Below, piece by piece: positions 1 to 15,563 of a stretch of DNA of 64,000 bases (within the stretch, counting starts at the first letter, position 1; each line of letters starts with the position of its first letter). The position numbers and the translations under genes are program-made. Under the pieces are notes generated by a model. The model was given only the letters and a program-made list of their open reading frames with translations, was not told the origin of the DNA and searched no databases. This DNA is from Pseudonocardiaceae bacterium (GTDB lineage Bacteria; Actinomycetota; Actinomycetes; Mycobacteriales; Pseudonocardiaceae), in the NCBI GenBank assembly GCA_035276605.1, contig DATELN010000126.1, positions 641-64,640 of the forward strand, given 5' to 3'.

Positions 1-179
1 ACAACGCGGTCAGCCTAGACGGGTAGCGTGAGATCAAACATCAACTAAGAGGTGGAGAACATCCCGCTAGCAGACTATACTCTTGAACTGCACTGATGCA
101 GTGATTGCAATCTGCGCCATCATCGCTCCTCCGATTCGCGCGCCACACCGCACCAGTCGATACAGCTGGAAGGAAAGCG

Positions 180-794
180 ATGACATGGAGCCGCGCTACG
201 GTTGGCCTGCTGCTGATGATGCTCCTCGCAACAGCGTGCGGCAACCCATCAAACTCACCCGGTTGGCTCGTTACTACCTACTACACAGCCGTCGAATCAT
301 TGCACAGTGGACCATTCACCCGTGTAATCGGCTGTCTCCGACTCGACTGCCAGAATGGGCATGACGATCTTGGCTACTACCCGGCTGATTTCGTGCGCGC
401 CGTGCATGACGAGGGCACCGGTCGAATCACTAACGGCCGGTACGCGGGCATGTATCTGAACTGGTCCGCGGGCGTCGGCTATTGGCTCGACACCGCGGCA
501 AGGGACGCATACGGCCATCCGCTGCAGAGGTTTCGCACTGCCGCGGCGGATGGCTTGGCTAAGGGCACTGCTGTTCGGTTAAGCAGCTGCGGCTATGTTG
601 ACAATGGAAAGCCACCGGCTACCGAGGTATGCGCGCGGCTGCGGGCCCCGACATGGGTCATCAACGACTCCTTCACACCTGGGTCGGGCGGGAGCTATCA
701 CATCGACCTGTACATCGGCGAGGAGACCGGGTCCGGCATCCGCTCAAGCCCCTTGTACACCACCTTGCATAATGCCGTCCTCAGCATCGGCTGA
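180..794 (+). CDS. secreted lipoprotein with C-terminal 3D (MltA/RlpA-like) domain
   Basis: ORF 105..794. The internal ATG at 180 gives a signal peptide plus lipobox (LLATAC-G). The C-terminal ...GSGGSYHIDLYIGEE... resembles 3D-domain proteins. Confidence 0.65.
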   Translation: MTWSRATVGLLLMMLLATACGNPSNSPGWLVTTYYTAVESLHSGPFTRVIGCLRLDCQNGHDDLGYYPADFVRAVHDEGTGRITNGRYAGMYLNWSAGVGYWLDTAARDAYGHPLQRFRTAAADGLAKGTAVRLSSCGYVDNGKPPATEVCARLRAPTWVINDSFTPGSGGSYHIDLYIGEETGSGIRSSPLYTTLHNAVLSIG

Positions 795-872: not shown

Positions 873-1397
873 TTACTGCCGCAATTCAAAGGGCGGAGGC
901 GACGCAGCACGTCCTACCGACATGCCCAGGGCTTCCACCATGTCGTCGACGGTGATGGCTTGGGCGTCCCGGTGCATGGCCAGTTTCCGCCGGGCGAGCT
1001 CAGTAGCCAGCTGCTGCTGATGGTCGTCAACCTGCTCACCACGGGCCGGATCCCGGACAGCCAGGATCGGGTAGCGGCCGGCGTTGAGCGCGGCCAGCGC
1101 CGACCCGGTGCCGGCGTGGCTGATCACGATGTCCGCTTTGGCGAGCGCAGCGCCCAACTCAGCCGCCGGTAGTGCTGGTGTGGCCTGGATGGGGAGATCG
1201 TCCACCGGGGTGTCCGCGGTCTGCCACAGCACCTCCACCTGAAGCCCGGTCGCCTGAGCTAGCGCGCCTTCCGGCGTAAGCAGCGGCACCAAGTGCTCGA
1301 ACAACCGCCGGAACGGATATTGAGTGGCCGCCCCCACGGTGACCACGACCTGGATCACCGCATCGGGCTCCCGGGCCACGGCGGCGGCCGCCACCAC
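873..1397 (-). CDS. truncated paralog of the glycosyltransferase at 5882..6856: C-terminal Glyco_tran_28_C/Alg13-like half only, reading frame intact
   Basis: The 174-aa ORF is about 95% identical in protein to residues ~158-324 of ORF 5882..6856. The DNA is roughly 90% identical with mostly synonymous differences. The GTG start lies exactly at the duplication junction and no clear RBS is present. Confidence 0.5.
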   Translation of the reverse strand: MVAAAAVAREPDAVIQVVVTVGAATQYPFRRLFEHLVPLLTPEGALAQATGLQVEVLWQTADTPVDDLPIQATPALPAAELGAALAKADIVISHAGTGSALAALNAGRYPILAVRDPARGEQVDDHQQQLATELARRKLAMHRDAQAITVDDMVEALGMSVGRAASPPPFELRQ

Positions 1398-1491: not shown

Positions 1492-1721
1492 GCAGCGGTC
1501 GACCAAATGGTGCAACGCGGTCGACTGCCGCTACCCCATCTGCCGTAGCAAAGCTTTTTCATACCTTTTGTTAATCTGAAATTCCTTCAATGATAGCCCA
1601 TGTCGTGCAATATCGCCGGCTAACGGAACCGCATGACTCGCCGATTGTCCCAGTGTCACCGTCCACTGGAATCGAGGCGATCACGGTTGGGTGACTGCCC
1701 CAGTGAAAGGGAAGTTCCGCC

Positions 1722-2636
1722 ATGACCGTCTCCTTATTCGCGATTTTTGCCGTGGTGTTCGCGTTGGTCGCGCTCGTGATAATGCTCGACCTGCTGCGTA
1801 TCACCCGACGATTGCGTCATGCCGGCGCGACCCGCGCTGTAGTTGTCGCCACAGCTGTGATCGTGGCGATCATCGACATGTACCGCGCCGCACTGCCCGA
1901 CGCGGTCGCAGGACCCTTCCAGATAGCCACACTGACACTAAATATGGTGGCCCTTGCCGGCATCCCGCTCCTGCTCGACGCCCAGCGAATTACTCCCCGC
2001 ACCACACGCTTGCCCCGGCGCATCCTCGCAATCGGAGCCCATCCCGACGATCTGGAAATTGCTTGCGGAGGCACGCTGGCGAAGTTCGTGGACTCTGGTC
2101 ATGAGGTGCATGGCCTGGTGATGTCCGGTGGTGGGAGGGGCGGCGACGGCTGCGCCCGGCCTGGCGAGGCGCTGGCGGCCGCACAATTCATGCGGCTGAC
2201 CAGTCTCAGTGTGCTCGGGCTGCCAGATACGGAGCTGCCTGCTCACCAACGGACGATGATCGAGGCGATTGAGACAACGCTGTCCCGGCTCAATGCCGAC
2301 ATCGTACTGACTCATTCGATCAATGATGTCCATCAAGACCATCAAGCGGTGTACCTGGCGACGATGCGTGCCGCGCGCAATCATCCCGCAATCTTGTCTT
2401 ACGAAAGCCCGTCGGCGAACGAGCAATTCATGCCCCGCTGGTTCGTCGATATCGACCAGTACTTCGACGTCAAGGCCACTGCTGTTTCGGCGCATAGAGA
2501 TCAGGCGGGCAAGTCGTACTTATCCAAGAAGCACATGAAGGCGGTAGCGGTTGTCCGCGGCGCGCAGGCGAGGACTCGCTACGCCGAAGGCTTCGAGGTT
2601 GTCCGCTTGCTTGATACCCGCGCCGCCGACCTGTGA
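1722..2636 (+). CDS. PIG-L/LmbE-family de-N-acetylase with ~3 N-terminal transmembrane helices
   Basis: ILAIGAHPDDLEIACGG motif plus HSINDVHQDH. The N-terminal ~90 aa are hydrophobic. RBS AAGGGAAG lies upstream of the ATG at 1722. Confidence 0.8.
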   Translation: MTVSLFAIFAVVFALVALVIMLDLLRITRRLRHAGATRAVVVATAVIVAIIDMYRAALPDAVAGPFQIATLTLNMVALAGIPLLLDAQRITPRTTRLPRRILAIGAHPDDLEIACGGTLAKFVDSGHEVHGLVMSGGGRGGDGCARPGEALAAAQFMRLTSLSVLGLPDTELPAHQRTMIEAIETTLSRLNADIVLTHSINDVHQDHQAVYLATMRAARNHPAILSYESPSANEQFMPRWFVDIDQYFDVKATAVSAHRDQAGKSYLSKKHMKAVAVVRGAQARTRYAEGFEVVRLLDTRAADL

Positions 2637-3487
2637 GTGCCGCCAGGGTCCTCGTCACGGGCGTCGGTGGTCCCGCTGGCCGTAGCCTGTACACCCAGCT
2701 TGGCCAGCGCGGCATCGACGTGATCGCGGCCGACATGGCCGCGATCGAGCTGCCCAGCGCGCATCGGATACCGCCTGCAACCGAGCCCTCGTTCGCCGCC
2801 AAACTGGCAGCATTGGCTCACTGGGAACGGGCCGACCTAGTCGTGCCGACGGTCACAGAAGAGCTCGATGTGCTGGCGCAGCCAGGGCAATGGGCAGGTC
2901 CGCCCATTGTTCTCGCACCATGGACGGCGGTACGGCTCGCCGCAGATAAGTACCTGACGTGCATAGAGCTTGAACGCGCCGGTATCGCCGTACCCCGTTT
3001 CGCGCTGCCGTCAACGTTGGGCAAAAGATGGCTTGGTACACGTTATCTCAGTAAACCACGGATTAGCCGGGGTAGCCGCGGCATTGCCATCCATAACGGC
3101 TACGACAAATGCGGCCTTGACGATCGGTGGGTATTGCAGGAATACCTGCCGGGACGCGAGTACGCACCCAATGTCTACTTACACGCCGATCCACAACGCG
3201 ATGTCGTCATCGTGCTGGAAAAGACCGCGTGCAGCCACGGTGACTACGGCAATGCGACGAGCGTAATCCGGAAACACAACGCCGCGGTGGCTTCCCTCGC
3301 GCGGGCGTCAGCACGGGCACTCGGATTGCGGGGACCCGCTGACATTGATATTCGGTACAACGCCGACGGAGTTCCTGCCGTACTCGAAATCAATGCGCGG
3401 TTCGGAGCGAACTCCGCGCATGCCCCTGAGATTGTCGACGCACTGCTCGACGAGTGGTTGCCGCAGTTGCGCAGCGAGGTCGCATGA
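2633..3487 (+). CDS. ATP-grasp domain ligase
   Basis: The GTG start overlaps the upstream stop (GTGA). Motifs: LSKPRISRGSRGI, LQEYLPGREY, DGVPAVLEINARFG. Confidence 0.7.
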   Translation: MSAARVLVTGVGGPAGRSLYTQLGQRGIDVIAADMAAIELPSAHRIPPATEPSFAAKLAALAHWERADLVVPTVTEELDVLAQPGQWAGPPIVLAPWTAVRLAADKYLTCIELERAGIAVPRFALPSTLGKRWLGTRYLSKPRISRGSRGIAIHNGYDKCGLDDRWVLQEYLPGREYAPNVYLHADPQRDVVIVLEKTACSHGDYGNATSVIRKHNAAVASLARASARALGLRGPADIDIRYNADGVPAVLEINARFGANSAHAPEIVDALLDEWLPQLRSEVA

Positions 3488-4719
3488 CGAACGCCGCCGC
3501 TGCGACATTCTTCGCGATGAGCATGCCTATCTTCGTGCTCGGGCTGCTGCGACTGGTCTACTTCCCACTAGCGGTGGCTTTCGAACTACGTCCGGGGCGA
3601 AACATGGTTTTCAACAGCTCTGTGCCACTGGTGACAGTGGTGGTTCCAGCTTTCAACGAGGGTCGAGTCCTGCGCAATTGTGTGGACTCAATCTTGGCGT
3701 CGACCTACCGAACGATCGAAATCGTCCTTGTCGATGATGGCTCCACCGACGATACGCTGGCCGTGATGCGCTGCTACGCGGACCATCCAGCGGTGACTGT
3801 GCTTACCCGGCCGAACGGGGGTAAGGGCGCCGCCCTCAACGCCGGTATCGCCGTGGCCAAGGGCGAAATCGTTCTACTGGTCGACGCGGATGGGATTTTC
3901 ACCGCAACCACGGTTGTCGACATTCTTCGAGGCTTCGACGGACCGCGAGTAGGCGCAGTGTGCGGCAACGACACGCCAGTGAACCTGGACCGCTTGCAGA
4001 CTCGCCTGCTCGCTGTACTCACCCATACCGGGACGGGTTTCGTCCGCCGAGCGCTTGCGCTCATCGGCTGCCTACCGATCGTGTCAGGCAATCTCGGTGC
4101 ATTTCGCAAGTCAGTCCTCGATGAGGTCGGCGGCCTGCGGGAAGACATCGTCGGAGAGGATCTCGAGCTCACCTGGCGGATTCGCCGCGCGGGCTACTCG
4201 GTCAGCTTCCGCCCCGACGCGAAGGTCTACGCGGAAGTACCCTCCACCGTCCGGGGATTGTGGCGTCAGCGGATTCGCTGGAGCCGCGGCTTCATTCAAA
4301 CCGTACGGCTACACCGGGACCTGCTCTTCCGCCCGCGTTACGGCCTTTTCGGCTGTTGGCTGCCGATCAATGTGACTTCTATGCTCGTCGTTCCGGTGTT
4401 GCAGGTGGCAGCTCTGCTGCTGGTGCCGGTGCTGGCCGCGACGACTAACTCGCCGGTGCCCCCTTCGGTGCTGGGTGCGCTCGGCTGGCTTGGGCTTGTC
4501 GTCGGCGTGATCACCGCATTTTGTGCGATCCTGCTGGACCGCGCGTACGCCGACCTGCGTCTGCTTTATGTGGTTCCGTTGTGGGTGGTCTACTCGGCGC
4601 TCCTTTCGCTCGTGGTGGTGGTTGCGCTTTGGCAGGAGATCCGGGGCAGCGAAGCGCGCTGGAACAAGCTGGCCCGTACGGGCGTCGTCAGTCGTGACGG
4701 ACTGGCGCAGGGCGGTTGA
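3484..4719 (+). CDS. processive family-2 glycosyltransferase, PgaC/IcaA-like, with C-terminal TM helices
   Basis: ATGA overlap with the upstream stop. Motifs: VVVPAFNE, VDDGSTDDT, LLVDADG, GEDLELTWRIRRAGY, QRIRWSRG. Four or more C-terminal TM segments. Confidence 0.85.
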   Translation: MTNAAAATFFAMSMPIFVLGLLRLVYFPLAVAFELRPGRNMVFNSSVPLVTVVVPAFNEGRVLRNCVDSILASTYRTIEIVLVDDGSTDDTLAVMRCYADHPAVTVLTRPNGGKGAALNAGIAVAKGEIVLLVDADGIFTATTVVDILRGFDGPRVGAVCGNDTPVNLDRLQTRLLAVLTHTGTGFVRRALALIGCLPIVSGNLGAFRKSVLDEVGGLREDIVGEDLELTWRIRRAGYSVSFRPDAKVYAEVPSTVRGLWRQRIRWSRGFIQTVRLHRDLLFRPRYGLFGCWLPINVTSMLVVPVLQVAALLLVPVLAATTNSPVPPSVLGALGWLGLVVGVITAFCAILLDRAYADLRLLYVVPLWVVYSALLSLVVVVALWQEIRGSEARWNKLARTGVVSRDGLAQGG

Positions 4720-4720
4720 C

Positions 4721-5854
4721 GTGTGCCCCAGCGTGCTGCTTCCGGCGTATCTGCTGGTGCTGTCTCTGCTCACAGGTCAGCTGTTCACGCAGATCTCGTG
4801 CGATCCGCCCGAACGGGAACCGTGTTCGGCGCCGGTCGCCGCCGCACCGGCTGGACGTGCTCCACTGCGCGCCGTCAGCCTGGGATTTGACGACGTACAG
4901 CGCACCCCGGAGCAACTCGCCGGCCTCGATACCCAGATGTCGCGCAGCGGAGTCACGGCCGTTGGGGTGAGCGCCGGTCGGGCGGATTGGACGACATTCC
5001 CGTGGCCGGCCGCGCCGGATGCCTGGTCGGCCCCCGTACGCGCCGACGGACACGATTTGTTCGGCGACGCCATCCGAGTGCTAGGGGCTGGCAAGTACAC
5101 CTCGGCCGTCGTGGACGTCTTCGCTGAGCGTTATCTTGCTGCCCACCCCGACCTCGCTGCGCGCGATAGCAGCGGCCAGCGGGTGCCATATCAGGCCAGC
5201 ACGGTCGAGCTTGTGAATGGTGAGTTAGGCCGGCGGCTGCTCGCAATGATCGACTATCTAGCTCGGACGTACCCGATCGACTCAGTGGATCTCACTGAGC
5301 TGCAGTACCACTCAGAGGGATTCGGGGAGGACGACAAGCAGGCCTATCTCGCGGCCACGGGTCACAGTGACTGGCCTCGGGACTCCAGTGGCGCCATTGC
5401 CGTTGATGACCCATCGATTGGGCGGTGGCGCTCAGGGCTGATTGCGGATTTTGTTCGCCGAGCTGCGGACATCGTGCACGCTCAGCACAAGGAGCTCATT
5501 GTTGACGTTCGAGTCTCGCGCGATGATCCCAGTCGCGATGGCGAGGAGAACGGCCAGTGCTATCGGGCGCTGCTCGTTCATGCCGATCGGCTTCTGGTAT
5601 GGAATTATTTCGGCTTGGCGTCCGGTTCACCGGAGGACACCCGCAAACTTGCCAAACACCTGTCTCAGCTAGGACGCGGCCGATTCATCATGAGTATCGG
5701 GCTGTGGGGACCTGACAACAGTGTAGTCGGCCCGGACGACCTCACCATCGCGCTACGTAGCTCAGAGCGGGGCGGAGTTCCGGATGAATGGGTGACACCC
5801 TACGGCCTCATGACCGACGTCCACTGGAAGGCACTCGCCTTCAACTGGACGTGA
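4721..5854 (+). CDS. exported or membrane-anchored protein, possibly a TIM-barrel glycoside-hydrolase-like (GHL) fold
   Basis: The GTG at 4721 lies 1 nt after the GT2 stop codon. N-terminal hydrophobic segment (VLLPAYLLVLSLL). ...YPIDSVDLTELQYHSEGFG... resembles GHL-type families. The functional call is weak. Confidence 0.55.
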   Translation: MCPSVLLPAYLLVLSLLTGQLFTQISCDPPEREPCSAPVAAAPAGRAPLRAVSLGFDDVQRTPEQLAGLDTQMSRSGVTAVGVSAGRADWTTFPWPAAPDAWSAPVRADGHDLFGDAIRVLGAGKYTSAVVDVFAERYLAAHPDLAARDSSGQRVPYQASTVELVNGELGRRLLAMIDYLARTYPIDSVDLTELQYHSEGFGEDDKQAYLAATGHSDWPRDSSGAIAVDDPSIGRWRSGLIADFVRRAADIVHAQHKELIVDVRVSRDDPSRDGEENGQCYRALLVHADRLLVWNYFGLASGSPEDTRKLAKHLSQLGRGRFIMSIGLWGPDNSVVGPDDLTIALRSSERGGVPDEWVTPYGLMTDVHWKALAFNWT

Positions 5855-5881
5855 CCGGTGAGTTGGTCACGCATTGCAACG

Positions 5882-6856
5882 CTAATGGCGTAGTTCCAAA
5901 GGCGGAGGCGAGGCGGTGCGTCGCACCGACATGCCCAGCGCCTCCACCATGTCGTCGACGGTGATGGCTTGGGCGTCGCGCTGCATCGCCAGCTTGCGCC
6001 GAGCAAGTTCGGTAGCCAACTGCTGCTGATGGTCGTCGACCTGCTCACCACGGGCCGGGTCTCGGACGGCCAGGATCGGGTAGCGGCCGGCGTTGAGCGC
6101 GGCCAGCGCCGATCCGGTGCCGGCGTGGCTGATCACGATGTCCGCCTTGGCGAGTGCGGCGCCCAACTCAGCCGCCGGCAGTGCTGGCGTGGCTCGAATG
6201 GGCAGATCATCCACGGGGGTATCCGCGGTCTGCCACAGCACTTCCACCTGAAGCCCCGTCGCTCGGGCCAGTTCCCCTTCGGGTGCCAGCAACGGCACGA
6301 GGTGCTCGAACAACCGGCGGAACGGATACTGGGTGGCCGCCCCCACGGTGACCACGACCTGGATCACCGCATCGGGCTCCCGGGCCACGGCGGCGGATTC
6401 ATAGCCGTCGAACACGCTGCCGGCGTACTGCCAGCGCTCATCCGCCCAGCTCGGATACTGGGTGTAGGTGCGCACGCCCGGCACCCGCTGGAGGACCCGT
6501 CCGGTTACCGACGGCCCGCTCACCCGCGTGGCGCTCTCGATGTAATGGCACTCCACGCCCCGGGCCGCCAGGTAGGGCAAATAACCCAGCGCGATCCCGG
6601 ATCCGGTTGACACCGCTCTGGTCAGCTTCCGGCGCGCTAGCAGGCGATGCGCGTTAGGGATGCACCGCAGCACATCGGGCACGCTGCGCACGCCGACGTA
6701 GGGCACGAACTCCACGTCCCGATCCGCCAGCATTGACCGGCTCTGCTCATTCGCATGAGTGACCCATACTTCGCCGCCGTTGGGCGGGATACGGCTCGCC
6801 AGGCTGTCGAGCTGCGTCAAGTGCCCACCTGTCGTGGCGACAAAAAGCGTGGTCAT
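5882..6856 (-). CDS. glycosyltransferase, fused Alg14-like N-terminal and Alg13/GT28-C-like C-terminal halves
   Basis: N-terminus MTTLFVATTGGHLTQL. C-terminal half reads ...IVISHAGTGSALAALNAGRYPILAVR...DDHQQQLA. Confidence 0.75.
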   Translation of the reverse strand: MTTLFVATTGGHLTQLDSLASRIPPNGGEVWVTHANEQSRSMLADRDVEFVPYVGVRSVPDVLRCIPNAHRLLARRKLTRAVSTGSGIALGYLPYLAARGVECHYIESATRVSGPSVTGRVLQRVPGVRTYTQYPSWADERWQYAGSVFDGYESAAVAREPDAVIQVVVTVGAATQYPFRRLFEHLVPLLAPEGELARATGLQVEVLWQTADTPVDDLPIRATPALPAAELGAALAKADIVISHAGTGSALAALNAGRYPILAVRDPARGEQVDDHQQQLATELARRKLAMQRDAQAITVDDMVEALGMSVRRTASPPPLELRH

Positions 6857-6984
6857 CGAGAATTACCCCTGTTCACCCTTGAGCACTCACTGCGACGAAC
6901 TGAATCCGCAGAGTCACAGTACTCCTCCAACGCGTTATCTGACATATCGCGCCGAGGCCAAAGAGGAGAACGTGCACACCACCA

Positions 6985-7050
6985 CGACACACTGTGCACG
7001 AGAGCGCGACACGCGGGGCACGGCGGCGCGACACGCCGGGCGGAGGTGGG
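6985..7050 (+). repeat. 66-bp element made of three tandem 22-nt units (copy A)
   Basis: cgacacactgtgcacgagagcg / cgacacgcggggcacggcggcg / cgacacgccgggcggaggtggg. It lies in the divergent spacer between 5882..6856 and the FemAB-like gene. Confidence 0.8.
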
Positions 7051-7068
7051 GAAGGTACGGTCGGCGGC

Positions 7069-8121
7069 GTGAACGAGGCAGAGGGGGAGACCGTACTCAT
7101 TGATCCGCGTTGTGATCCGCGGTGGCGGGAGCTGGCGTTGGGGCCGCACGGGAGCGTGTTCACCTCGCCGCTGTGGATTGATGCGGTGTGTGGCACGTAC
7201 GGGTTCACGCCGGTCGCCAGTGTCCGGCTGGACTGGGACGGCACGCCGCGGGCTGGGCTGGCGTGGGTGCCGATCAGTGACATACGCGGTGACCGGTTGT
7301 CCAGCTTGCCGTTCTCGGACCGGGCCGAGCCGCTGACCGACGACCCCACGGACTGGAAAGCCCTCGCCGACACCGTCATTACCAGCACCGCACCGCTCAC
7401 GCTGCGCTGTTTTGATACCGCAGTAGCCGTCGCCGATCCCCGCTTCCGCCAGGTCGGTGAAGCGGCATGGCACGGTACGCCCCTGGACTCAGACATCGAC
7501 GAGATTCGGCGGCGGCTGTCCCAGCACGCCCGCCGCAACATCACCATCGCCGAACGGGAAGGCGTGCGAGTCGAGGCGCGCACCGATCGCGACGCCGTGC
7601 ACCGCTTCCACGAGCTGCATGTCCTGCTGCGCAAGCGCAAGTACCAGCTGCTGGCCCAACCCGTCGAGCTGTTCGACCACATCTGGGACGCCTTCGCACC
7701 GAACGACGCCATCGTCACGATGCTGGCCCACGCCGGAGACGAACTGATCGCCGGCGCGGTATTCCTCACCTGGCACAACACCCTCTACTACAAATTCGGG
7801 GCCTCCCGCCACGAACACCTGGCCAGGCGACCGAACGACGCGATCTTCTGGGCTGGTATCCGCTGGGGCATCCAACAAGGCGCGCACCTAGTCGACTGGG
7901 GGCTGTCTGACCTCGATCAGCCTGGCCTGATCGCCTATAAGCGCAAGTGGGCGACCGAAGAAAAGCGGATCGTCACCCTGCGCGCCGGCGGTGAGCACGC
8001 CCGCAGCAACCCACAGGCCGGCCAGATGCTCGGTAGGCTCACCGAACTGCTCACCGCCGAATCGGTTCCGGATGACGTGACGCAGCAGGCCGGTGCGCTG
8101 CTATATCGCTACTTCTGCTGA
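7069..8121 (+). CDS. FemAB-like / GNAT-fold acyl(aminoacyl)transferase
   Basis: ORF 6994..8121. The GTG at 7069 was chosen because it lies downstream of the repeat; the start is uncertain. DPRWRELALGPHGSVFTSPLWIDAV and the overall length (~350 aa) are typical of FemAB/CelD-like proteins in EPS loci. Confidence 0.65.
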   Translation: MNEAEGETVLIDPRCDPRWRELALGPHGSVFTSPLWIDAVCGTYGFTPVASVRLDWDGTPRAGLAWVPISDIRGDRLSSLPFSDRAEPLTDDPTDWKALADTVITSTAPLTLRCFDTAVAVADPRFRQVGEAAWHGTPLDSDIDEIRRRLSQHARRNITIAEREGVRVEARTDRDAVHRFHELHVLLRKRKYQLLAQPVELFDHIWDAFAPNDAIVTMLAHAGDELIAGAVFLTWHNTLYYKFGASRHEHLARRPNDAIFWAGIRWGIQQGAHLVDWGLSDLDQPGLIAYKRKWATEEKRIVTLRAGGEHARSNPQAGQMLGRLTELLTAESVPDDVTQQAGALLYRYFC

Positions 8122-8644
8122 ACGGCTGCCGAGGGGCTGTGGCCGAGCGTCCGCGCGGCGTCTTACCCCACGGTTTGACCACCGACAAACCGGTCGCCAC
8201 CAACAACAACGCCAGCGCAGCCGCTCTGCCGATCAGCAACTGCATCCCGACTGGCTCGGCATCCCCGATGATGATCTGGTGCAGTCGGGGCAGCATCACC
8301 ACCAACCCGGCTGCCGTCAACACCCCGGCTATCCCGCACTTGATGATGACCCACCAGTACCGCACCAGACCCCAGGGTGTGGACAGCGCCAACACCAGCC
8401 CACTGAGCAGCGAGGCCGCCACTACCGGAACCAGTACCCATACGACGAGTGCAGCCATGGCAGCGGCTATCCCGGCCCGCTCACTAGGATCACCAGTGCC
8501 CAGGCCGGTCACTTCCAACGCCACCAGTGCACCGTCGAGCCCGAGCCACCCCACCGACACTGTGATGTGCGCGGTAAGTAGCGCACTGCGGGCCCGACGC
8601 GTAAGTCGGGGAATCGCGAAACTGGTCGTAGCGACTGCAGTCAA
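8051..8644 (-). CDS. integral membrane protein, unknown function
   Basis: Four to five hydrophobic helices. It is the last gene of the minus-strand EPS operon. The 3' end overlaps the convergent gene by ~70 nt. Confidence 0.5.
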   Translation of the reverse strand: MTAVATTSFAIPRLTRRARSALLTAHITVSVGWLGLDGALVALEVTGLGTGDPSERAGIAAAMAALVVWVLVPVVAASLLSGLVLALSTPWGLVRYWWVIIKCGIAGVLTAAGLVVMLPRLHQIIIGDAEPVGMQLLIGRAAALALLLVATGLSVVKPWGKTPRGRSATAPRQPFSRSSDIAAHRPAASRHPEPIRR

Positions 8645-8676
8645 GGCTGCCCCCCAAGCTGCCTAATACCAATCGG

Positions 8677-9333
8677 TTAGCGCGCACCCTGCCCCCGCAA
8701 CAATGCCGGGACGGTACGCAGCAAGATCCCCAGGTCACTCCAGAAACTCCACCCGCGCACGTAGGCGAGATCGAGTTCGAGCATCTCCAAGGTACCCATC
8801 GTGCTGCGCCCACTAACCTGCCAAAGCCCGGTAAGTCCGGGCGGGACATCGAAGCGCTCGGCGAACCGGGCCGGGAACATCTCCGCTTCCCAGTCCAGGC
8901 AGGGCCGGGGCCCCACCAACGACATTTGCCCCCACAGTACGTTGATCAACTGAGGCAGCTCGTCGATGCTGGTGCGCCGCAGGAAGGCCCCGACCCGAGT
9001 CACCCGCGGGTCACGATCGATCTTCCAGCTGCCGTTCACCGAGGTGTCCTCGCCGCGCAGTTCGCGGGCAATGAGCTCGCGGTGCTGCGCGTCGGAGCCC
9101 CCTACCCGCATGGTGCGGAACTTGTACATGGTGAAAGGTCGCCCACCCCGGCCGATCCGCCGCTGGCGGTAAAACGCCGGCCCGGGGCTGCTCAACCTAA
9201 TAGCCATCCCGATGACCAACATCGGGATCATCAGCACCAGCAGGGCGACGACCACCACCGACAGGTCGACGGCCCGCCGAGCAATCGGTTCCCATCGAGC
9301 GGGTAACCGTGTCTGTTCAACGCCGCTGGACAC
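8677..9333 (-). CDS. polyprenyl-phosphate sugar phosphotransferase (bacterial sugar transferase, WbaP/WecA-type priming enzyme)
   Basis: Motifs: PGPAFYRQRRIGRGGRPFTMYKFRTM, DELPQLINVLWGQMSLVGPRP. Confidence 0.85.
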   Translation of the reverse strand: MSSGVEQTRLPARWEPIARRAVDLSVVVVALLVLMIPMLVIGMAIRLSSPGPAFYRQRRIGRGGRPFTMYKFRTMRVGGSDAQHRELIARELRGEDTSVNGSWKIDRDPRVTRVGAFLRRTSIDELPQLINVLWGQMSLVGPRPCLDWEAEMFPARFAERFDVPPGLTGLWQVSGRSTMGTLEMLELDLAYVRGWSFWSDLGILLRTVPALLRGQGAR

Positions 9334-10756
9334 TGAGCCTCCCCGCGGTGATTCCGATCAGCATGAACAGCAGGTCCCCGGTACCGCGCAAGGTCAGGTG
9401 CGGATCGAGGATGGTGAGGATGAGCACGAACCACCAGCACACAAACAGCGCCGACGCCGCGGCACCGATCGCGCCCGGCTGCGCCATGAGCTCGCGCGTG
9501 CGGCGCAGCACCACGACCGACAGCCAAGCGAACGCGGCCAGTAGCGGGATTCCGCCGACCCACAGCAGCTCCAGGTAGCCGCTTTCCAGGTAGATGACAT
9601 CGCGCCATCTCTCCGGCGCGTCCAACACCGAGTCGGGCGAAACCCCCATTAAGACGTTGATGAAGCCAAACCGCGGCAGATAGAAGTTGGACAGGTTGTT
9701 CCAGCGGCCGATCCAGCTGCGCGGCACGCCGAATTCGCTGAATCCTTGCAACCGCCCGACCAGCGCCGGCGCACCGATCGCCAGCGCCACGGGAATCAAC
9801 CACACAAACCGCAGTGAGCCGTGGCGCACGCTGCTGAAGCGCCACAGGATCAACCCCGCCGCAACCACCGCGGAGATCCAGGTGGAGAACTGACCGGTGG
9901 CGAGCACTCCGGCGCCGAGTACCAATCCCAGACCCAGCCGCTCCCGGCGATCCAGCAACCCGCGCATCCCGCAGCAGACGATCAAGGTCAGGCAGATGAT
10001 GATGTAATCGCCGGTCGCGATAGGCGAGGCGAGCGTGGTTGAACCCCGCTCGGCCAGCGCGGCAGGGTTACTGTCCGGAGCCCAGACCGCCTGCAGCATC
10101 GCGACAACCGGGCCGAAATGCAGAGTTTGCATGATTGCGATCACCGCTACTACCGCGCCCGGCCAGATGATCAGCCGGAAGCAGCGCACCAGCTGGGCTT
10201 CGGTACTGACGGTGAAACGCACTAGCAGGTAGATGGCCATGAGCTTGCAGACCGGCAGCACCGCCGCCAGATCAGGACTTGCGGGCACGTGGCCACGCAA
10301 CAACATCGATAGCAGCGGCCACGCGGTCGAGGCCAGCAGGAACACGCCAAGCGGGATATCCAGCTGATGCAGCTGTAGGGGTATCCGTTCGCCCCGACAC
10401 CATCGGATATAGCCACCGACCAGCGCTCCGGCCAGCAGCACTACCAGCAGCGCTTCGTTGGGCCGCACCAGGGGAATCAGGTGCCCACGGTCGATCCCGG
10501 CGATGAGCGGCAAGGCGCCGAGATAGGCGTAGGTGGCAAAGACCGGCCGGTAGGCGGCTATGGCAAACATTCCGGCCAGCGCCAACACGCCGATCGCGGC
10601 CAGCGCGATGAGCGGTCCAGTCGCGACCGCGAGGACCCCACCGGCCACAGCGCAGCCGGCAGCCCCCATCGCCAACGAGCGACTGATCAACGGGGTTGGT
10701 AAATACCCACCAGAGGCGGGAGGCGAGCTAGAACCCGGCGGAAGGGTTTGCGTCAT
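9317..10756 (-). CDS. O-antigen ligase/polymerase-like (Wzy-type) membrane protein
   Basis: About 10-12 TM segments. The ATG at 10756 overlaps the upstream stop (ATGA), so the longer ORF start at 10888 was rejected. Confidence 0.7.
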   Translation of the reverse strand: MTQTLPPGSSSPPASGGYLPTPLISRSLAMGAAGCAVAGGVLAVATGPLIALAAIGVLALAGMFAIAAYRPVFATYAYLGALPLIAGIDRGHLIPLVRPNEALLVVLLAGALVGGYIRWCRGERIPLQLHQLDIPLGVFLLASTAWPLLSMLLRGHVPASPDLAAVLPVCKLMAIYLLVRFTVSTEAQLVRCFRLIIWPGAVVAVIAIMQTLHFGPVVAMLQAVWAPDSNPAALAERGSTTLASPIATGDYIIICLTLIVCCGMRGLLDRRERLGLGLVLGAGVLATGQFSTWISAVVAAGLILWRFSSVRHGSLRFVWLIPVALAIGAPALVGRLQGFSEFGVPRSWIGRWNNLSNFYLPRFGFINVLMGVSPDSVLDAPERWRDVIYLESGYLELLWVGGIPLLAAFAWLSVVVLRRTRELMAQPGAIGAAASALFVCWWFVLILTILDPHLTLRGTGDLLFMLIGITAGRLSVQRR

Positions 10757-12366
10757 GACCCACCACCTATCCGTCGCACCGCGACTCGGAGTACTAGGAC
10801 GTAGACCCCGAGGGCCGCGACGCCACCCAGGGACAGGATTGCAAGATCGACGAGCTGATTTCCGTGGTCGATCTGCTGCAGCCACCACATCGCGGCCGCC
10901 ACCGGCAGCAGCGCGAGGGTTGCCATCAGCGCGGCAGCCAAACCTCGGGTTTCCAGGAACCGTTCGGGATGAATCGCCTGCCGCACCCGGGTCAACACTG
11001 TCCCCGCGGCGGCGAGTTCACCGGCCAGGATGGCCGCCACCAGCCATACCAGCCGAGTGGCGTCCGTGGGCAGCAACAACCCCCCGGCTGCAGCTACCAC
11101 GACCACGCCGAAGGCCACCTCGCTGGCCCGCCGCGGGATCCGGTCGTCGAGCCGGGCGAACAGCGCCCGGCGGCCGATGTCATGCACCCCACCGACCAGT
11201 TGAGCCACCGCCACGATCGCCAGGCAGGCGGCGAGGGGCCCGATCAGAGCGGCATGCCGCAGCTCGCCGTTGGCCAGCAGGTTAGCCGCGGGTCCCGACA
11301 GCACCGCGAGCAGCACGAGGAGCGGCAGGCTGGCGATCACGGCATAGGACAGGCCTTGGCGCCACCCCGAAGCGAACGTGGCGGCGTCGTCGCGATGTGC
11401 AGCGTCGGCCAGGCCCGGCAGCGCAGCCACCGACACCGCCCGGGCACTGACATACGACAGCGCGAAAAAGACGGAGTAGGACAGTTGCACGACGAAGGTC
11501 CCACCCGGCACCGTGCCGGCCAGCGCAAGCAGCACATACATCGCCGCGGTCGGCCAAGCCGCCACGCCCACCGAGCGCACCAGCCTGCGGGTGATCTCCC
11601 GAGTTTCGGGATCACCCCGCCAACGCATCGACGGCCGGCTCAACAATCCCGCCCGGGCGGTGCCGAACAGCTGCAGCGCCGCGTGGAGGGCAACGGCCAG
11701 GGTGCTGCCAATCCCCAGGGTGAGCATCAACCCGATCGAGACATGATCGAATTCCAGGCCGGTTCCGTAGTACCAGCCGGCGAGGAGCACCGTCAGAATC
11801 AGCACGCCGTTCTCGACCACCTGCGCGCCCGCCGCCAGCGCAAACCGGCCGCAAGCCTGCTGGGCGGATATGCCCAGGTGCACCAGCACGTACAACGGCA
11901 CCTGCGGCGCCACGAGCAATACCAGCAATGTGGTGATCCACAGGCCACGGGCCTGTGCACCGGCATCCGGAATCCCGAAGGTCAGCGTCCAGGCGACCGC
12001 CGGGGACAGGATCATCAGCAGCCCGACCAACGCGGCCGAGACGGCCAGCAGCCACCCGGCTACCCGGCCGAGCACCTCCCGGGCCCTCGGCACGCCGCCA
12101 GCACCGACGGCGTGCACGAGGCCCGGCACCACCACCATCCCCAGCACCGGGCCGGCGATCATCGTAAAGACCATGTTCGGCACGACGTATCCGGTCTGGA
12201 ACGCGTTCGCGAAGAACGTCGGGCCGAGCACCGCCCCGATCACCACTACCCGCAACAACCCCGTAACCCTGCTGACCAGCGTCCAGCCCGCAACGGTGGC
12301 CGAGTTCCGAGCCGTGGTGGTCGGAGGTGTGGGATCTTCAAGCACTGTCACCGTTGAGGCGGCCAC
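10753..12366 (-). CDS. MurJ/MviN-family flippase
   Basis: SRVTGLLRVVVIGAVLGPTFFANAFQTGYVVPNMVF at the N-terminus. 537 aa, polytopic. Confidence 0.8.
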   Translation of the reverse strand: MAASTVTVLEDPTPPTTTARNSATVAGWTLVSRVTGLLRVVVIGAVLGPTFFANAFQTGYVVPNMVFTMIAGPVLGMVVVPGLVHAVGAGGVPRAREVLGRVAGWLLAVSAALVGLLMILSPAVAWTLTFGIPDAGAQARGLWITTLLVLLVAPQVPLYVLVHLGISAQQACGRFALAAGAQVVENGVLILTVLLAGWYYGTGLEFDHVSIGLMLTLGIGSTLAVALHAALQLFGTARAGLLSRPSMRWRGDPETREITRRLVRSVGVAAWPTAAMYVLLALAGTVPGGTFVVQLSYSVFFALSYVSARAVSVAALPGLADAAHRDDAATFASGWRQGLSYAVIASLPLLVLLAVLSGPAANLLANGELRHAALIGPLAACLAIVAVAQLVGGVHDIGRRALFARLDDRIPRRASEVAFGVVVVAAAGGLLLPTDATRLVWLVAAILAGELAAAGTVLTRVRQAIHPERFLETRGLAAALMATLALLPVAAAMWWLQQIDHGNQLVDLAILSLGGVAALGVYVLVLRVAVRRIGGGS

Positions 12367-12376
12367 AACCGGGGCC

Positions 12377-13300
12377 TCACGGCTTCGTCCGGCGCCGGAC
12401 AGTCATCGCGACCACTGCGCCGGCCACGATCACGCCGACCAGGGCACCTGTGCCGGCCGCGATCAGCGGCTGCGGGAACACTGGATCGGGCAGCGAGTAC
12501 GGCGGCGTCAGCAGCTGCGCATCGGGCCCGTTCTGACCGGTGAGGTTGATCTCGTCGATGCGGGCTTGGATCGCCTTCTCGCGCTCCAAGGACGCCGTCA
12601 GCTGCACTCGCGCGTCGTTGAGCGCCGCTTGGGTGGCCGTTCCGGCCGTCACCGCAGTGGTCAGCTGCTGCACCCGCGTCTGGATCTGTGCGGTGTTCTG
12701 CTTGGCGTCGGCGAGTTGGGTGTCCAGGTTGCGCGACACGCCGGTGGGTTGGCCGATCAGCGTCATGTAGCCGTCCATGACCGATTGCAGCGTCTGCAAC
12801 GCGGCCAGCTTGGTCGGACCGTCAGCCTCGACTTCGATGACATTGCTGTTTTCCAGGACCTCCACGGTGACGGCCTTGTCGAGGTCCTTGAACTGCCGAC
12901 CTTCTTTGGTGGCGACCGGCCCCAGCACGGCCCGACTCTTGAGATACACCAGCTGGGTGGACAGGTCACGGCCCTGCTTGAGCGGGTCGCCGCTTTGCTG
13001 CTGCTGGCCGACGGCGTAGAGCACCTCCGCGCGTGCACCGTAGGTTTTCGGCAAGACCAGCGCGGCGCCCAGCCCGGCAGCGGTGCCGAGCAGGATGATC
13101 GTCAACGCCAGGAGAACGAGGCGCGTGGTTCCTGAACCACCACCCTCGGGTTCTTCGGCGGGGATGTCGAAGCGGCCCCCTGACCGCTGCGGAGGCACGT
13201 CACCCATCCCGGGGGACGTGTCCAGTTGCTCTTTCTGGCCCATCGAACGTCCATTCGATTCGCTAGCCCCGTACTGGAAGACATTGGAAACATCGGTCAC
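12377..13300 (-). CDS. polysaccharide chain-length determinant (Wzz/PCP-like, no kinase domain)
   Basis: Two TM helices flank a coiled-coil-rich exported domain. The GTG start overlaps the upstream stop (GTGA). Confidence 0.65.
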   Translation of the reverse strand: MTDVSNVFQYGASESNGRSMGQKEQLDTSPGMGDVPPQRSGGRFDIPAEEPEGGGSGTTRLVLLALTIILLGTAAGLGAALVLPKTYGARAEVLYAVGQQQQSGDPLKQGRDLSTQLVYLKSRAVLGPVATKEGRQFKDLDKAVTVEVLENSNVIEVEADGPTKLAALQTLQSVMDGYMTLIGQPTGVSRNLDTQLADAKQNTAQIQTRVQQLTTAVTAGTATQAALNDARVQLTASLEREKAIQARIDEINLTGQNGPDAQLLTPPYSLPDPVFPQPLIAAGTGALVGVIVAGAVVAMTVRRRTKP

Positions 13301-14430
13301 AGCACACCTCCGAGCACATCGCAGACCCGCGCAACCTGCTCAACACTCAGGGTCGGGGACATCGGAAGGGACAAGATTCGGCTGGCCGCGCGTTCGGCGA
13401 CCGGTAGTTGCTGGCTGGCTGGCACCGACTCGTGAAGAGCGGTCAGGGCCGGCTGCTGATGGCAAGGGATCGGGTAGTGCACGCCCCAGCCGATACCGGC
13501 CGCGGTCAGCGCATCACCGACCTTCGGGCGGTCGTCGACCTGAACGACTGCCAGGTGGTACACGGGTTCGGCGCCGGACTGCACCGACACCGGTGAGCAA
13601 CTCGGCGGCAGCATCTCGCGGTAAGCCGCCATCGCTGAGGCGCGCCGGGCGTTGCCGGCGTCCAGCCACGGCAGCTTGGCCGACAGCAGTGCTGCTTGCA
13701 GCGTATCGAGCCGGCTGTTACGGCCCGCTCGGTCGTGCCGGTAACGATCTGCGGCGCAGCGCCCGTGATTGGCCATACTGCGGATCGTCTCGGCCAGGGC
13801 GAGATCGCTGGTGACCACCGCACCACCATCGCCCAGGGCACCGAGGTTCTTGCCGGGATAAAAGCTGAACCCGGCGGCGATACCCACGCTGCCGGCACTG
13901 GCGCCCCGGTGCCGGGCGCCGTGGGCTTGCGCGGCGTCTTCGATGAGAGCCAGCCCGTGGGCCGCAGCGATCGACGAGATTGGTTCGGGGTCGACCATCT
14001 GGCCATACAGGTGCACGGCGATGATCGCTGCCGTCGAACTGTTGATTGCGGCTTGGGCCGCGGCGGGATCGATCAGCAGCGTGTCAGCACAGACATCGAC
14101 GAACCTCGGTCGGGCACCGGTCGCGCAGACCGCCTCAGCCGTCGCGATGAAGGTGTTCGTGGGGATGATGACCTCGTCGCCGATCCCGATGCCCAGGCCT
14201 CGCAGGATGAGTTCCAGGGCGTCGGTCCCGTTGGCTACCCCGATGCAGGCTTCGGCGCCGCAGTACATCGCGAATTCCCGCTCGAAACGCTCGACCTCGG
14301 GTCCGCCGACGAAATGACCGTGATCCAGCACGGTTTTCCATGCCAGGTCGAACTCCTCGCGCAGACCGTTGTTCACGCTGTGGAGATCGAGGAAAGGGAT
14401 ATTGAAAGAAGCGCGGTCACCGGCGGTCAT
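13297..14430 (-). CDS. DegT/DnrJ/EryC1/StrS-family sugar aminotransferase
   Basis: IPFLDLHSVNNGLREEF..., GVANGTDALEL. The ATG at 14430 overlaps the upstream stop (ATGA). Confidence 0.85.
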   Translation of the reverse strand: MTAGDRASFNIPFLDLHSVNNGLREEFDLAWKTVLDHGHFVGGPEVERFEREFAMYCGAEACIGVANGTDALELILRGLGIGIGDEVIIPTNTFIATAEAVCATGARPRFVDVCADTLLIDPAAAQAAINSSTAAIIAVHLYGQMVDPEPISSIAAAHGLALIEDAAQAHGARHRGASAGSVGIAAGFSFYPGKNLGALGDGGAVVTSDLALAETIRSMANHGRCAADRYRHDRAGRNSRLDTLQAALLSAKLPWLDAGNARRASAMAAYREMLPPSCSPVSVQSGAEPVYHLAVVQVDDRPKVGDALTAAGIGWGVHYPIPCHQQPALTALHESVPASQQLPVAERAASRILSLPMSPTLSVEQVARVCDVLGGVL

Positions 14431-15563
14431 GAGGCCACCCCCCGCATGCGGTCCGCGCTGGAGACGTTGATACCAGCGGACACGAAGGCTGGGCGCCCGG
14501 TGGCTTCGGCAATGTCGGTGGCGGCCAAGACGCGGACGATGTCGAGGCCACGCTGCCCAGGCGTGTTCGGCGTGGCGCCGGTGCGGATACATTCAACGAA
14601 ATGGCTGTCTTGCACCAGCAGTGGCTCGTTGAACTGGATAAATGGCGAGACAATGTCGCCATTCCGGTAGGAAACCGGCATGGCGTGCGATTCACCATGG
14701 TCGTCGGAATCGGCCGGGTCGACGCCGATGTCGTAGACGCGGATCCGCTCATTGTCCGACGTATCGTCGTAAACGGCCATCTTTCGATCCCCGACGACGG
14801 TAACCCGGCGGACCCTGCAGGGGTCTAGCCAGCTGACGTGGACGAAAGCGTGAGTGGCCGCCTGCTCGAAGTCCAGCCGCAGGTAGGCCACATCGGCATA
14901 GCGGTTCCCGACATGCCGTTTGGCCCAGACGGAAGTAGCTCTGGGAACCTCGTCGAGTAAGTAAGAAACGATCGAAATGTCGTGCGGAGCGAGATCCCAG
15001 ATAACGTTGCAATCACGCTGGTACTTGCCCAGGCTCAACCGGGCGGCGTCGATGTACAAGACTCGGCCGAGCTCACCGGAGGCGATGAGCTCCTTGAGCT
15101 TCCACACCGCAGCGTTGTATTCGAACGTATGACCCGCCATCAAGTGCACGCCATTCGCCGCCGCTGCATCGACCATCGCTTGTGCGTCTTCCACCGTGGT
15201 GGCCAGCGGCTTTTCTACCAATGCGTGCCGCCCGTTACGCAGCGCTTGAAGCGCGATTGCAGCGTGCGCAGAGGGCGGGGTCGCGACGACGACGGCGTCG
15301 ACCCGACCTAACACCTCGTCAAGCCGTCGGGCGGCTTCCGCCGCCGGGTACGCTCTTTTAGCCTCTGCGATCCGCTCGGCGTCCTGGTCGACGATGGTCA
15401 CCTGGACACCTGGCATGCTGCTGAGCACCCGCATGTGCTTGGAGCCCCAGTAGCCGTAGCCCACTACCGCCACGCGGACATCGGGATCGAAAGTGGTGAC
15501 GCTCCCGGATTCGCGGCGCGCGGAATTAGCTGCCGGTTGGGTGGGAGTTGCAACGAACTTCAT
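14427..15563 (-). CDS. Gfo/Idh/MocA-family NAD-dependent sugar oxidoreductase
   Basis: VAVVGYGYWGSKHMRVL Rossmann N-terminus. First gene of the minus-strand operon. Confidence 0.85.
   Translation of the reverse strand: MKFVATPTQPAANSARRESGSVTTFDPDVRVAVVGYGYWGSKHMRVLSSMPGVQVTIVDQDAERIAEAKRAYPAAEAARRLDEVLGRVDAVVVATPPSAHAAIALQALRNGRHALVEKPLATTVEDAQAMVDAAAANGVHLMAGHTFEYNAAVWKLKELIASGELGRVLYIDAARLSLGKYQRDCNVIWDLAPHDISIVSYLLDEVPRATSVWAKRHVGNRYADVAYLRLDFEQAATHAFVHVSWLDPCRVRRVTVVGDRKMAVYDDTSDNERIRVYDIGVDPADSDDHGESHAMPVSYRNGDIVSPFIQFNEPLLVQDSHFVECIRTGATPNTPGQRGLDIVRVLAATDIAEATGRPAFVSAGINVSSADRMRGVAS

Follow-up and report, generated by a model that had tools for sequence, protein, structure and literature searches.

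What would a cell make with a polysaccharide synthase that is encoded together with an N-deacetylase and an amide-forming ligase? The question is raised by four genes at the start of a 64,000-nucleotide stretch of DNA from a Pseudonocardiaceae bacterium (contig DATELN010000126.1), called the window here. An earlier note on this DNA had suggested a polymer based on N-acetylglucosamine (GlcNAc), de-N-acetylated on the cytoplasmic face of the membrane and then acylated again. We consider it probable that the genes form a synthase-dependent exopolysaccharide module with deacetylate-then-ligate editing in the cytoplasm. In this reading the module is autonomous, horizontally mobile and related to the system for poly-N-acetylglucosamine (PNAG; Pga/Ica). 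The four genes are the following (E, expectation value):

1722..2636, + strand: membrane-anchored PIG-L/LmbE-family N-deacetylase, 304 amino acids (PF02585, E = 3e-25)
2633..3487, + strand: soluble ATP-grasp carboxylate-amine ligase, 284 amino acids (ATP-grasp_3 PF02655, E = 2.5e-13)
3484..4719, + strand: PgaC/IcaA-like processive family-2 glycosyltransferase (GT2), 411 amino acids (Glyco_tranf_2_3, E = 5.6e-33; TIGR03937, E = 8e-56)
4721..5854, + strand: exported or membrane-tethered (beta/alpha)8-barrel protein, 377 amino acids, a putative glycan-binding or hydrolase subunit (AlphaFold2 model and Foldseek)

The open reading frame (ORF) listing and our reading of the DNA show that each gene overlaps or abuts the next. 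The stop codon of the PIG-L gene and the GTG start codon of the ATP-grasp gene share the nucleotides GTGA (2633-2636). Likewise, the ATP-grasp stop and the GT2 start overlap in ATGA (3484-3487). The GT2 gene ends with TGA at 4717-4719, and the barrel gene begins with GTG at 4721, one nucleotide later. The tight coupling of four same-strand genes, as first described, is thus borne out. Upstream starts are also listed for the GT2 (3454 instead of 3484) and for the barrel gene (4523 instead of 4721). The identical product annotated by NCBI for the fourth gene has 377 amino acids, in agreement with the start at 4721. All the motifs quoted in the earlier note (DDGSTDD, DAD, GEDLELTWR, QRIRWSRG, AHPDD and EINARFG) are present in the translations. 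The labels that it gave to the four proteins agree with our family and structure assignments (Pfam, NCBIfam, AlphaFold2/Foldseek).

We made a neighborhood survey to see how often these genes stand together. The alignment of the ATP-grasp protein was scanned over one genome per prokaryotic species, which gave 80 loci, and the four window proteins were used in tblastn searches. The trio of PIG-L, ATP-grasp and GT2 genes is present in 73 of the 80 loci, and it is strictly collinear and adjacent in 67. This recurrence of gene order goes beyond chance, because the 67 loci are independent and come from several phyla and from archaea. The barrel gene is found in 51 of the 74 loci that have enough downstream sequence. 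The loci are distributed as follows:

Actinomycetota: 50 loci (Arthrobacter, Paenarthrobacter, Trueperella, Actinotignum, Corynebacterium, Micromonospora, Isoptericola; one Pseudarthrobacter plasmid copy)
Chloroflexota: 15 loci
Methanogen metagenome-assembled genomes: 7 loci (Methanosarcina, Methanotrichaceae)
Spirochaetota: 3 loci
Other diderms: 5 loci

Roseiflexus castenholzii and an unrelated metagenome have the same order, PIG-L, ATP-grasp, GT2, barrel. In Roseiflexus, the quartet stands alone among housekeeping genes (molybdenum-cofactor MoCF, glycerate kinase and peptidase M3). So the quartet does occur in other genomes, as the earlier note had proposed to check. Clustering of the neighboring ORFs in 85 loci, with the antisense shadow ORF clusters of high-GC loci left out, gave no fifth broadly conserved gene and no acyl-donor enzyme. 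Only lineage-specific neighbors were seen, such as phosphoenolpyruvate carboxylase, a sigma/anti-sigma pair and two-component systems.

Some loci show a different number of genes. Arthrobacter nanjingensis (L082, 7001-14876) has one ATP-grasp gene followed by two tandem PIG-L-GT2-barrel sets. Several Arthrobacter loci (L050, L053, L058, L067, L076 and L080; ~12.7-13.7 kb) present a second ATP-grasp gene, 35% identical, about 5.7 kb downstream. Two tandem barrel genes are present in several Chloroflexota (L014, L033, L037 and L060), and protein P0150 is a fusion of two barrels. The entire quartet is carried by plasmid unnamed2 (131.5 kb) of Pseudarthrobacter sp. P1 (L052), which fits the horizontal mobility of the module. 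The PIG-L match of this copy is in two overlapping pieces and may reflect a frameshift.

The GT2 presents the motifs VDDGSTDD, VDADG, GEDLELTWR and QRIRWSRG. These contain the D, DxD and (T/G)ED residues of the GT-A fold and the Q(Q/R)xRW motif. Its scores are above the gathering thresholds for Glyco_tranf_2_3, Glycos_transf_2 and Glyco_trans_2_3, and there are GT21 Pfam matches too. Among the NCBIfam hidden Markov models (HMMs), the best match is PgaC_IcaA (TIGR03937), with 190 bits and a full-length alignment. NodC, the third-best, reaches 90 bits (cut-off 550) and CelA 52. The identity to E. coli PgaC is 33% over the catalytic domain (E = 9e-43). By hydropathy, one N-terminal and three C-terminal transmembrane (TM) segments flank the catalytic domain, followed by a basic cytoplasmic tail. 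These features group the protein with the processive membrane synthases, as its first label implied. As judged from sequence, it is embedded in the membrane, belongs to the processive type and is closest to PgaC/IcaA, and its channel function is predicted.

The deacetylase exceeds the PF02585 cut-off by a wide range (89.6 bits against 28.2). Its metal-binding motifs AHPDD and HQDH (HxDH) are those of the PIG-L/LmbE superfamily. Three N-terminal TM segments are seen by hydropathy in residues 1 to ~88, with the N-terminus outside, and the catalytic domain starts at residue ~100. Both the AHPDD motif and the three-TM anchor had been pointed out before, and both stand. The anchor, of about 100 residues, is retained in almost every PIG-L protein beside the same ATP-grasp, in bacteria and archaea. 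In these homologues, the mean number of lysines and arginines is 5.4 in the TM1-TM2 loop and 3.5 just after TM3. It is 1.1 in the N-terminal tail and 0.7 in the TM2-TM3 loop. The catalytic domain is predicted to lie on the cytoplasmic side because, under the positive-inside rule, this inside-biased charge pattern is present in 53 of 53 loci. Versions of the protein in diderm bacteria give independent support. They bear an N-terminal TPR domain, and the topology model has this end of the protein outside the membrane.

The nearest solved relatives of the PIG-L domain are diacetylchitobiose deacetylase (8bgn), BC1534 of Bacillus cereus (2ixd), TT1542 and BshB. They deacetylate GlcNAc glycosides, chitobiose among them, where the GlcNAc is terminal. 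The best NCBIfam match is BshB1 (E = 2.8e-21). Nevertheless, the equivalog cut-offs of the thiol-pathway deacetylases are not reached: 76 against 182.5 bits for BshB1, 39 against 195 for BshB2 and 26 against 277 for Mca.

The ATP-grasp protein has 50.9 bits for PF02655 (cut-off 23.2), and the PRK12767 models ("carbamoyl-phosphate-synthase-like") match it below their cut-off. The ATP- and Mg-binding residues K141, E252, N254 and R256 are invariant in the ATP-grasp alignment (A3), and the motif EINARFG is present. No TM segment was seen by hydropathy. Its AlphaFold2 model has a predicted local distance difference test (pLDDT) of 94.8. The nearest structures in Foldseek are 2pn1, of unknown function, and then D-Ala-D-Ala ligases (Ddl), PylC, L-amino-acid ligase and LysX/ArgX. 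The domain, the conserved lysine and the Mg-binding E/N residues are those of an ATP-grasp carboxylate-amine ligase, and the model and its matches agree. On this model, the fold neighborhood consists of enzymes that activate the carboxylate of an amino acid and join it to an amine. An amino acid is thus the likeliest ligated acid. A common metabolite would serve as donor, because no other broadly conserved enzyme is found among the neighbors.

By hydropathy, a single hydrophobic segment (signal or anchor) lies at the N-terminus of the fourth protein, and many homologues have lipoprotein-like signals. The protein gave no Pfam match at E<=0.01. Its AlphaFold2 model is an eight-stranded beta/alpha barrel (pLDDT 90.6). 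The residues D132, E193, D262 and D289 are invariant. The top Foldseek match is Cwp19 of Clostridioides difficile, from the GHL10 family (5oq2, E = 1.6e-12, TM-score 0.66-0.69). E. coli PgaB and Bordetella BpsB come next with their C-terminal domains (4p7o and 6au1, E ~6e-12 to 5e-11, TM-score 0.63-0.68). Barrels of GH14, GH20, GH42 and GH18 rank after them. The same structural neighbors were reported for the GH153 domain of PgaB. This C-terminal domain is a hydrolase of de-N-acetylated PNAG. It cleaves only the de-N-acetylated polymer and needs glucosamine (GlcN) in its substrate (PMC5933820). The model backs the fold in the "TIM-barrel hydrolase" label of the earlier note, and the role as a hydrolase is putative. 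The family is small: a search of 1.84 billion proteins gave 243 representatives at E<=1e-3. Some of its members match GHL10 (PF02638) weakly; the window protein itself does not match PF02638. In locus L003 (2648-8119), a barrel homologue (53% identical) is solitary. It is divergent from an operon of a response regulator, a HEAT-repeat protein, a 498-amino-acid GT2 and a histidine kinase, and no PIG-L or ATP-grasp gene lies in this region. The arrangement suggests that the barrel is able to serve a different GT2 synthase.

Together, the co-occurrence in other genomes, the affinity of the GT2 and the lack of membership in a known small-molecule family indicate a real functional module. On these three points the earlier note had made its proposal depend, and each was decided in its favor. 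We also found no characterized system with this combination, as the note had supposed. Full-text literature searches, with incomplete coverage, gave no description of PIG-L, ATP-grasp and a PgaC-like GT2 together. The combination is not mentioned in the passages found in a systematic survey of synthase-dependent operons (PMC7112194).

The diderm versions add parts that the monoderm window lacks (the TPR domain and a protein resembling an outer-membrane protein, OMP). The gene order, with the ATP-grasp first, is shared by locus L085 (Nitrospirae) and locus L061 (betaproteobacterial):

L085, 5148-11164: ATP-grasp, OMP-like protein, TPR-3TM-PIG-L protein, GT2-TM-barrel fusion
L061, 6968-13102: ATP-grasp, OMP-like protein, TPR-3TM-PIG-L protein, GT2-TM-barrel fusion
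L079, 6998-12410: Acidobacteriota, OMP-like protein in the same position
L077, 1783-6666: Myxococcota, TPR-3TM-PIG-L fusion

The OMP-like protein has 333-340 amino acids in the first two loci (333-345 overall). It presents a signal peptide, a tyrosine-rich alternating sequence and a C-terminal F/W. The L085 and L061 proteins are 44% identical, and the identity to the Acidobacteriota counterpart is 35%. In a protein of 592-610 amino acids, a signal peptide is followed by TPR repeats (about 290 residues), the three-TM anchor and then the PIG-L domain. Detection of the TPR, fused to the anchor, is firm in L085, L061 and L077. The third component, a fusion of 789-793 amino acids in L085 and L061, joins the GT2, one extra TM segment and the barrel. 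P0167 and P0170 are further GT2-barrel fusions. By analogy, this domain set can be placed one-to-one on PgaABCD. The OMP-like protein and the TPR would correspond to PgaA, the deacetylase and the barrel to PgaB, and the GT2 to PgaC. As a speculation, the three-TM element of the PIG-L protein is possibly the counterpart of PgaD. In a spirochaete locus (L020), a TPR protein is encoded divergently upstream (4615-5868, - strand) and a 7TM-GGDEF diguanylate cyclase downstream (12503-13909, + strand). The GGDEF neighbor hints at control by cyclic di-GMP.

How could these proteins work together? A processive GT2 synthase threads the body of its chain through the membrane, where it is inaccessible from the cytoplasm. 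The cytoplasmic site given for the deacetylation in the earlier note is supported by the topology in all 53 loci. The finished polymer, which the note took as substrate, does not fit, since the chain is not exposed on that side. Editing of a nucleotide sugar, or of a terminal or primer residue, is more plausible for the same reason. The likeliest substrate would be the nucleotide sugar, with uridine diphosphate (UDP)-GlcNAc converted to UDP-GlcN and then to UDP-GlcN-acyl, which the tethered synthase would receive by channelling. The alternative site is a terminal or primer residue.

In the mechanism that we propose, the TM anchor would hold the PIG-L domain next to the synthase, maybe in the role of PgaD/IcaD, and the N-acetyl group would be removed in the cytoplasm. 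The ATP-grasp enzyme would then spend ATP on joining the freed amine, in an amide bond, to a common carboxylate, most likely that of an amino acid. Since the deacetylase is strictly coupled to an amide ligase, sequential action on one amine is the simplest explanation. The GT2 would build in the edited sugar, either by itself or along with GlcNAc, polymerizing an N-acetylhexosamine glycan (probably of GlcNAc) and translocating it. Outside the cell, the barrel would bind or trim the polymer like PgaB's C-terminal domain. Diderms would use the TPR domain together with the porin to take it across the outer membrane.

The known system that the module resembles most is that of PNAG or polysaccharide intercellular adhesin (E. 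coli PgaABCD, staphylococcal IcaADBC). Both have a polytopic processive GT2, here with PgaC_IcaA as the best HMM and PgaC as a 33%-identical relative, a deacetylase, and an extracytoplasmic barrel with the fold of the PgaB C-terminal domain. The TPR domain and the outer-membrane barrel-like protein of the diderm versions recall PgaA, and the small TM element of the PIG-L anchor could substitute for PgaD/IcaD. The differences are also clear. The deacetylase of the module is of the PIG-L/LmbE type and cytoplasmic, whereas that of Pga/Ica is a CE4 enzyme outside the cytoplasm (the PgaB N-terminal domain or IcaB). The module adds an ATP-grasp ligase and is also found in archaea. Its domains are arranged otherwise: the deacetylase anchor carries the TPR, and the barrel follows the GT2 or is fused to it. 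The GT2 stays under the equivalog cut-off, and no sequence signal links the barrel to GH153. No separate small PgaD/IcaD ORF is present in the window module, where the genes overlap or abut, and there is no CE4 gene. In its proposed working, the module is most like the PNAG system, yet it fails three of its defining features (the PgaC equivalog, the CE4 deacetylase and PgaD/IcaD).

The pathway of Nod factors shares with the proposed module a GT2 for GlcNAc chains, de-N-acetylation in the cytoplasm and re-N-acylation of the amine. However, it uses NodB, a CE4 enzyme, and the acyl-ACP transferase NodA instead of PIG-L and ATP-grasp, and its short products are exported by NodIJ. The module has the hallmarks of polymer export (barrel, TPR and OMP-like protein). 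It contains no CE4 or NodA gene, and its GT2 does not reach the NodC equivalog. The syntheses of mycothiol (MshA-B-C) and bacillithiol (BshA-B-C) likewise combine a glycosyltransferase, a PIG-L-family deacetylase and an ATP-dependent step in which an amino acid is ligated to the amine of GlcN. They differ in their soluble GT4 enzymes, in ligases that are not ATP-grasp and in cytosolic small-molecule products, and the HMM scores are far under the cut-offs here. With regard to the barrel, Cwp19 is a surface-located GHL10 barrel that acts on a glycan containing N-acetylhexosamine, peptidoglycan (PMC5765458, PMC6016235). It is the best structural match of our fourth protein and has the same (beta/alpha)8 fold. 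In contrast, the identity is only 12-13%, and Cwp19 is a cell-wall protein anchored by CWB2 modules and encoded outside any synthase operon; the window protein does not share the PF02638 match.

Several observations weigh against a PNAG-related editing module. The GT2 has 190 bits where the PgaC_IcaA equivalog requires 422. Profile searches detected no sequence homology of the barrel to E. coli PgaB or to any PDB structure, so the link is at the level of the fold. Even there the TM-scores to Cwp19 and the PgaB C-terminal domain are only 0.63-0.69, for a protein with no Pfam match of its own. About a third of the loci have no barrel, and in some actinobacteria (L007 and L039) a two-component system, with a HAMP histidine kinase and an OmpR-type regulator, follows the GT2 in its place. 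The outer-membrane label comes from the signal peptide, the composition, the C-terminal F/W and matches to OMP_b-brl and DUF2490 (Pfam) that are below threshold. No PIG-L enzyme acting on UDP-sugars is known to us. The sugar and the acyl group proposed here are predicted from genes and folds. Finally, the survey was seeded on the ATP-grasp and says nothing about GT2 or PIG-L subfamilies that occur without it.

Could a simpler polymer explain the same genes? The module might make an ordinary, partly de-N-acetylated PNAG-like polymer, with PIG-L in the place of CE4 (for supply of UDP-GlcN or at chain ends) and the ATP-grasp acting elsewhere, on a protein partner, a cap or primer, or in regulation. 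The GT2 is closest to PgaC/IcaA, and the barrel resembles the PgaB domain that requires PNAG containing GlcN. The lack of a CE4 gene would leave a function that PIG-L could replace. We regard this as unlikely, given the place of the ATP-grasp. It is the most constant partner, it stands between PIG-L and GT2 with overlapping stop and start codons in 67 of the 80 loci, it shares the compartment of the deacetylase and it has the fold of amino-acid amide ligases. A second rival keeps PIG-L, ATP-grasp and GT2 at the cytoplasmic face. In this case the product is an N-edited oligosaccharide or glycolipid, built in the cytoplasm by the logic of Nod factors or of glycosylphosphatidylinositol (GPI), and the ATP-grasp adds an amino acid rather than a fatty acid. 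NodC makes a chito-oligomer, NodB deacetylates its terminal residue and NodA acylates it; in the GPI pathway, a PIG-L enzyme acts on lipid-linked GlcNAc in the cytoplasmic leaflet. Such a product would solve the problem of accessibility, and a membrane-anchored deacetylase suits a membrane-bound substrate. The activity of the PIG-L relatives on the terminal GlcNAc of chitobiose, the rank of NodC among the GT2 matches and the matches to GT21, a family of lipid glycosyltransferases, all agree with it. Nevertheless, an exported hydrolase-like barrel in 51 loci, fused to the GT2 in several lineages, and the periplasmic TPR and OMP-like protein of diderms are hallmarks of polymer export. ORF clustering gave no conserved exporter of the NodIJ type, and 90 bits are far from the 550 of NodC. 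We give this rival only a small chance.

Two other explanations are very improbable. The PIG-L and ATP-grasp enzymes could belong to a small-molecule pathway like those of mycothiol and bacillithiol, with the GT2 serving a soluble acceptor. The three-step logic is formally identical, and among the NCBIfam models the deacetylase matches BshB1 best. However, BshB1, BshB2 and Mca are all missed by far, and thiol pathways use GT4 enzymes and ligases that are not ATP-grasp. The glycosyltransferase here is a polytopic synthase of the QxxRW type and occurs with the PIG-L/ATP-grasp pair in 73 of 80 loci, the deacetylase is anchored in the membrane, and exported and outer-membrane parts accompany them. 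The quartet could also be an accessory part of the Wzx/Wzy-type exopolysaccharide locus that adjoins it in the window (5882-15563). It abuts such a locus in a close relative too (L086). In contrast, no genes of this kind are near the Roseiflexus quartet or most of the others, and only the four families are broadly conserved. We rejected both explanations on scores, architecture and neighborhoods.

The PNAG-related editing module, preferred over these rivals, can be extended into a broader proposal, which we offer as possible rather than probable. The quartet may represent a further class of synthase-dependent machinery in Bacteria and methanogenic Archaea. Its product would be a GlcN-based polymer in which N-acetyl groups are swapped for amides of amino acids or other carboxylates by a tethered cytoplasmic PIG-L and an ATP-grasp ligase, probably at the level of the UDP-sugar. 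To our knowledge, all polymer modification takes place outside the cytoplasm in the well-studied synthase-dependent systems (cellulose, alginate, PNAG and Pel). If the proposal is true, this would be the first cytoplasmic editing step in such a system and a new mode of editing these polymers, with a new chemistry, that of an N-substituted glucosaminoglycan. It could account for matrix or aggregation phenotypes where no biofilm polysaccharide locus has been recognized, and it would yield new enzymes, one that ligates to the GlcN amine and one that specifically hydrolyzes the modified polymer. Compact and self-contained, the module has among its carriers cultivable genera of medical or environmental relevance (Arthrobacter, Paenarthrobacter, Trueperella, Actinotignum, Corynebacterium, Micromonospora, Roseiflexus and Methanosarcina).

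Two candidate signals were read at the borders of the quartet, in a region with a G+C content of ~60-66%:

1707..1714, + strand: Shine-Dalgarno-like AAGGGAAG, 7 nt before the ATG of the PIG-L gene
5851..5870, no strand assigned: inverted repeat GTGACC-N8-GGTCAC, spanning the stop codon of the barrel gene

The first would be a ribosome-binding site and is preceded by a non-coding gap of ~240 nt. The second lies in the 27-nt gap before a convergent gene and may be a bidirectional terminator hairpin.

The flanks of the quartet contain a repeat. A 174-amino-acid ORF at 873-1397 (- strand) is 94% identical to the C-terminal (PssE/Glyco_tran_28_C) half of a 324-amino-acid glycosyltransferase at 5882-6856 (- strand). 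At the DNA level the repeat is ~90% identical, with a spacing of 5009 nt. Joined directly to the 873-1397 ORF is a fragment (1389-1480, + strand) that resembles the 3' end of a lipoprotein-like ORF at 105-794 (+ strand). These flanks place the quartet between diverged copies of one junction. An 85%-identical relative has the same right flank and a different left flank. The pattern points to a segmental duplication, perhaps an old one, or a cassette-like insertion around the quartet. Since the source is a metagenome-assembled genome, two strains may also have been joined in the assembly as a chimera.

The Wzx/Wzy-type locus encodes a fused PssD/E (WelK-like) glycosyltransferase, a 218-amino-acid small phosphoglycosyl transferase for priming (Bac_transf) and a polytopic polymerase-like protein of 523 amino acids with no family match. 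It also has a MurJ-like flippase, a Wzz-like protein, a DegT aminotransferase and a GFO/IDH/MocA oxidoreductase. A FemAB-like acyltransferase of this locus (Acetyltransf_6, 6994-8121) suggests that the Wzy-type polymer may also bear an aminoacyl or acyl amide. About 17 kb downstream of the quartet, a gene at 23014-24474 (+ strand) encodes a GlmU-like bifunctional N-acetyltransferase/uridylyltransferase. It is probably a housekeeping gene, and its product would supply the UDP-GlcNAc precursor for both polysaccharide loci.

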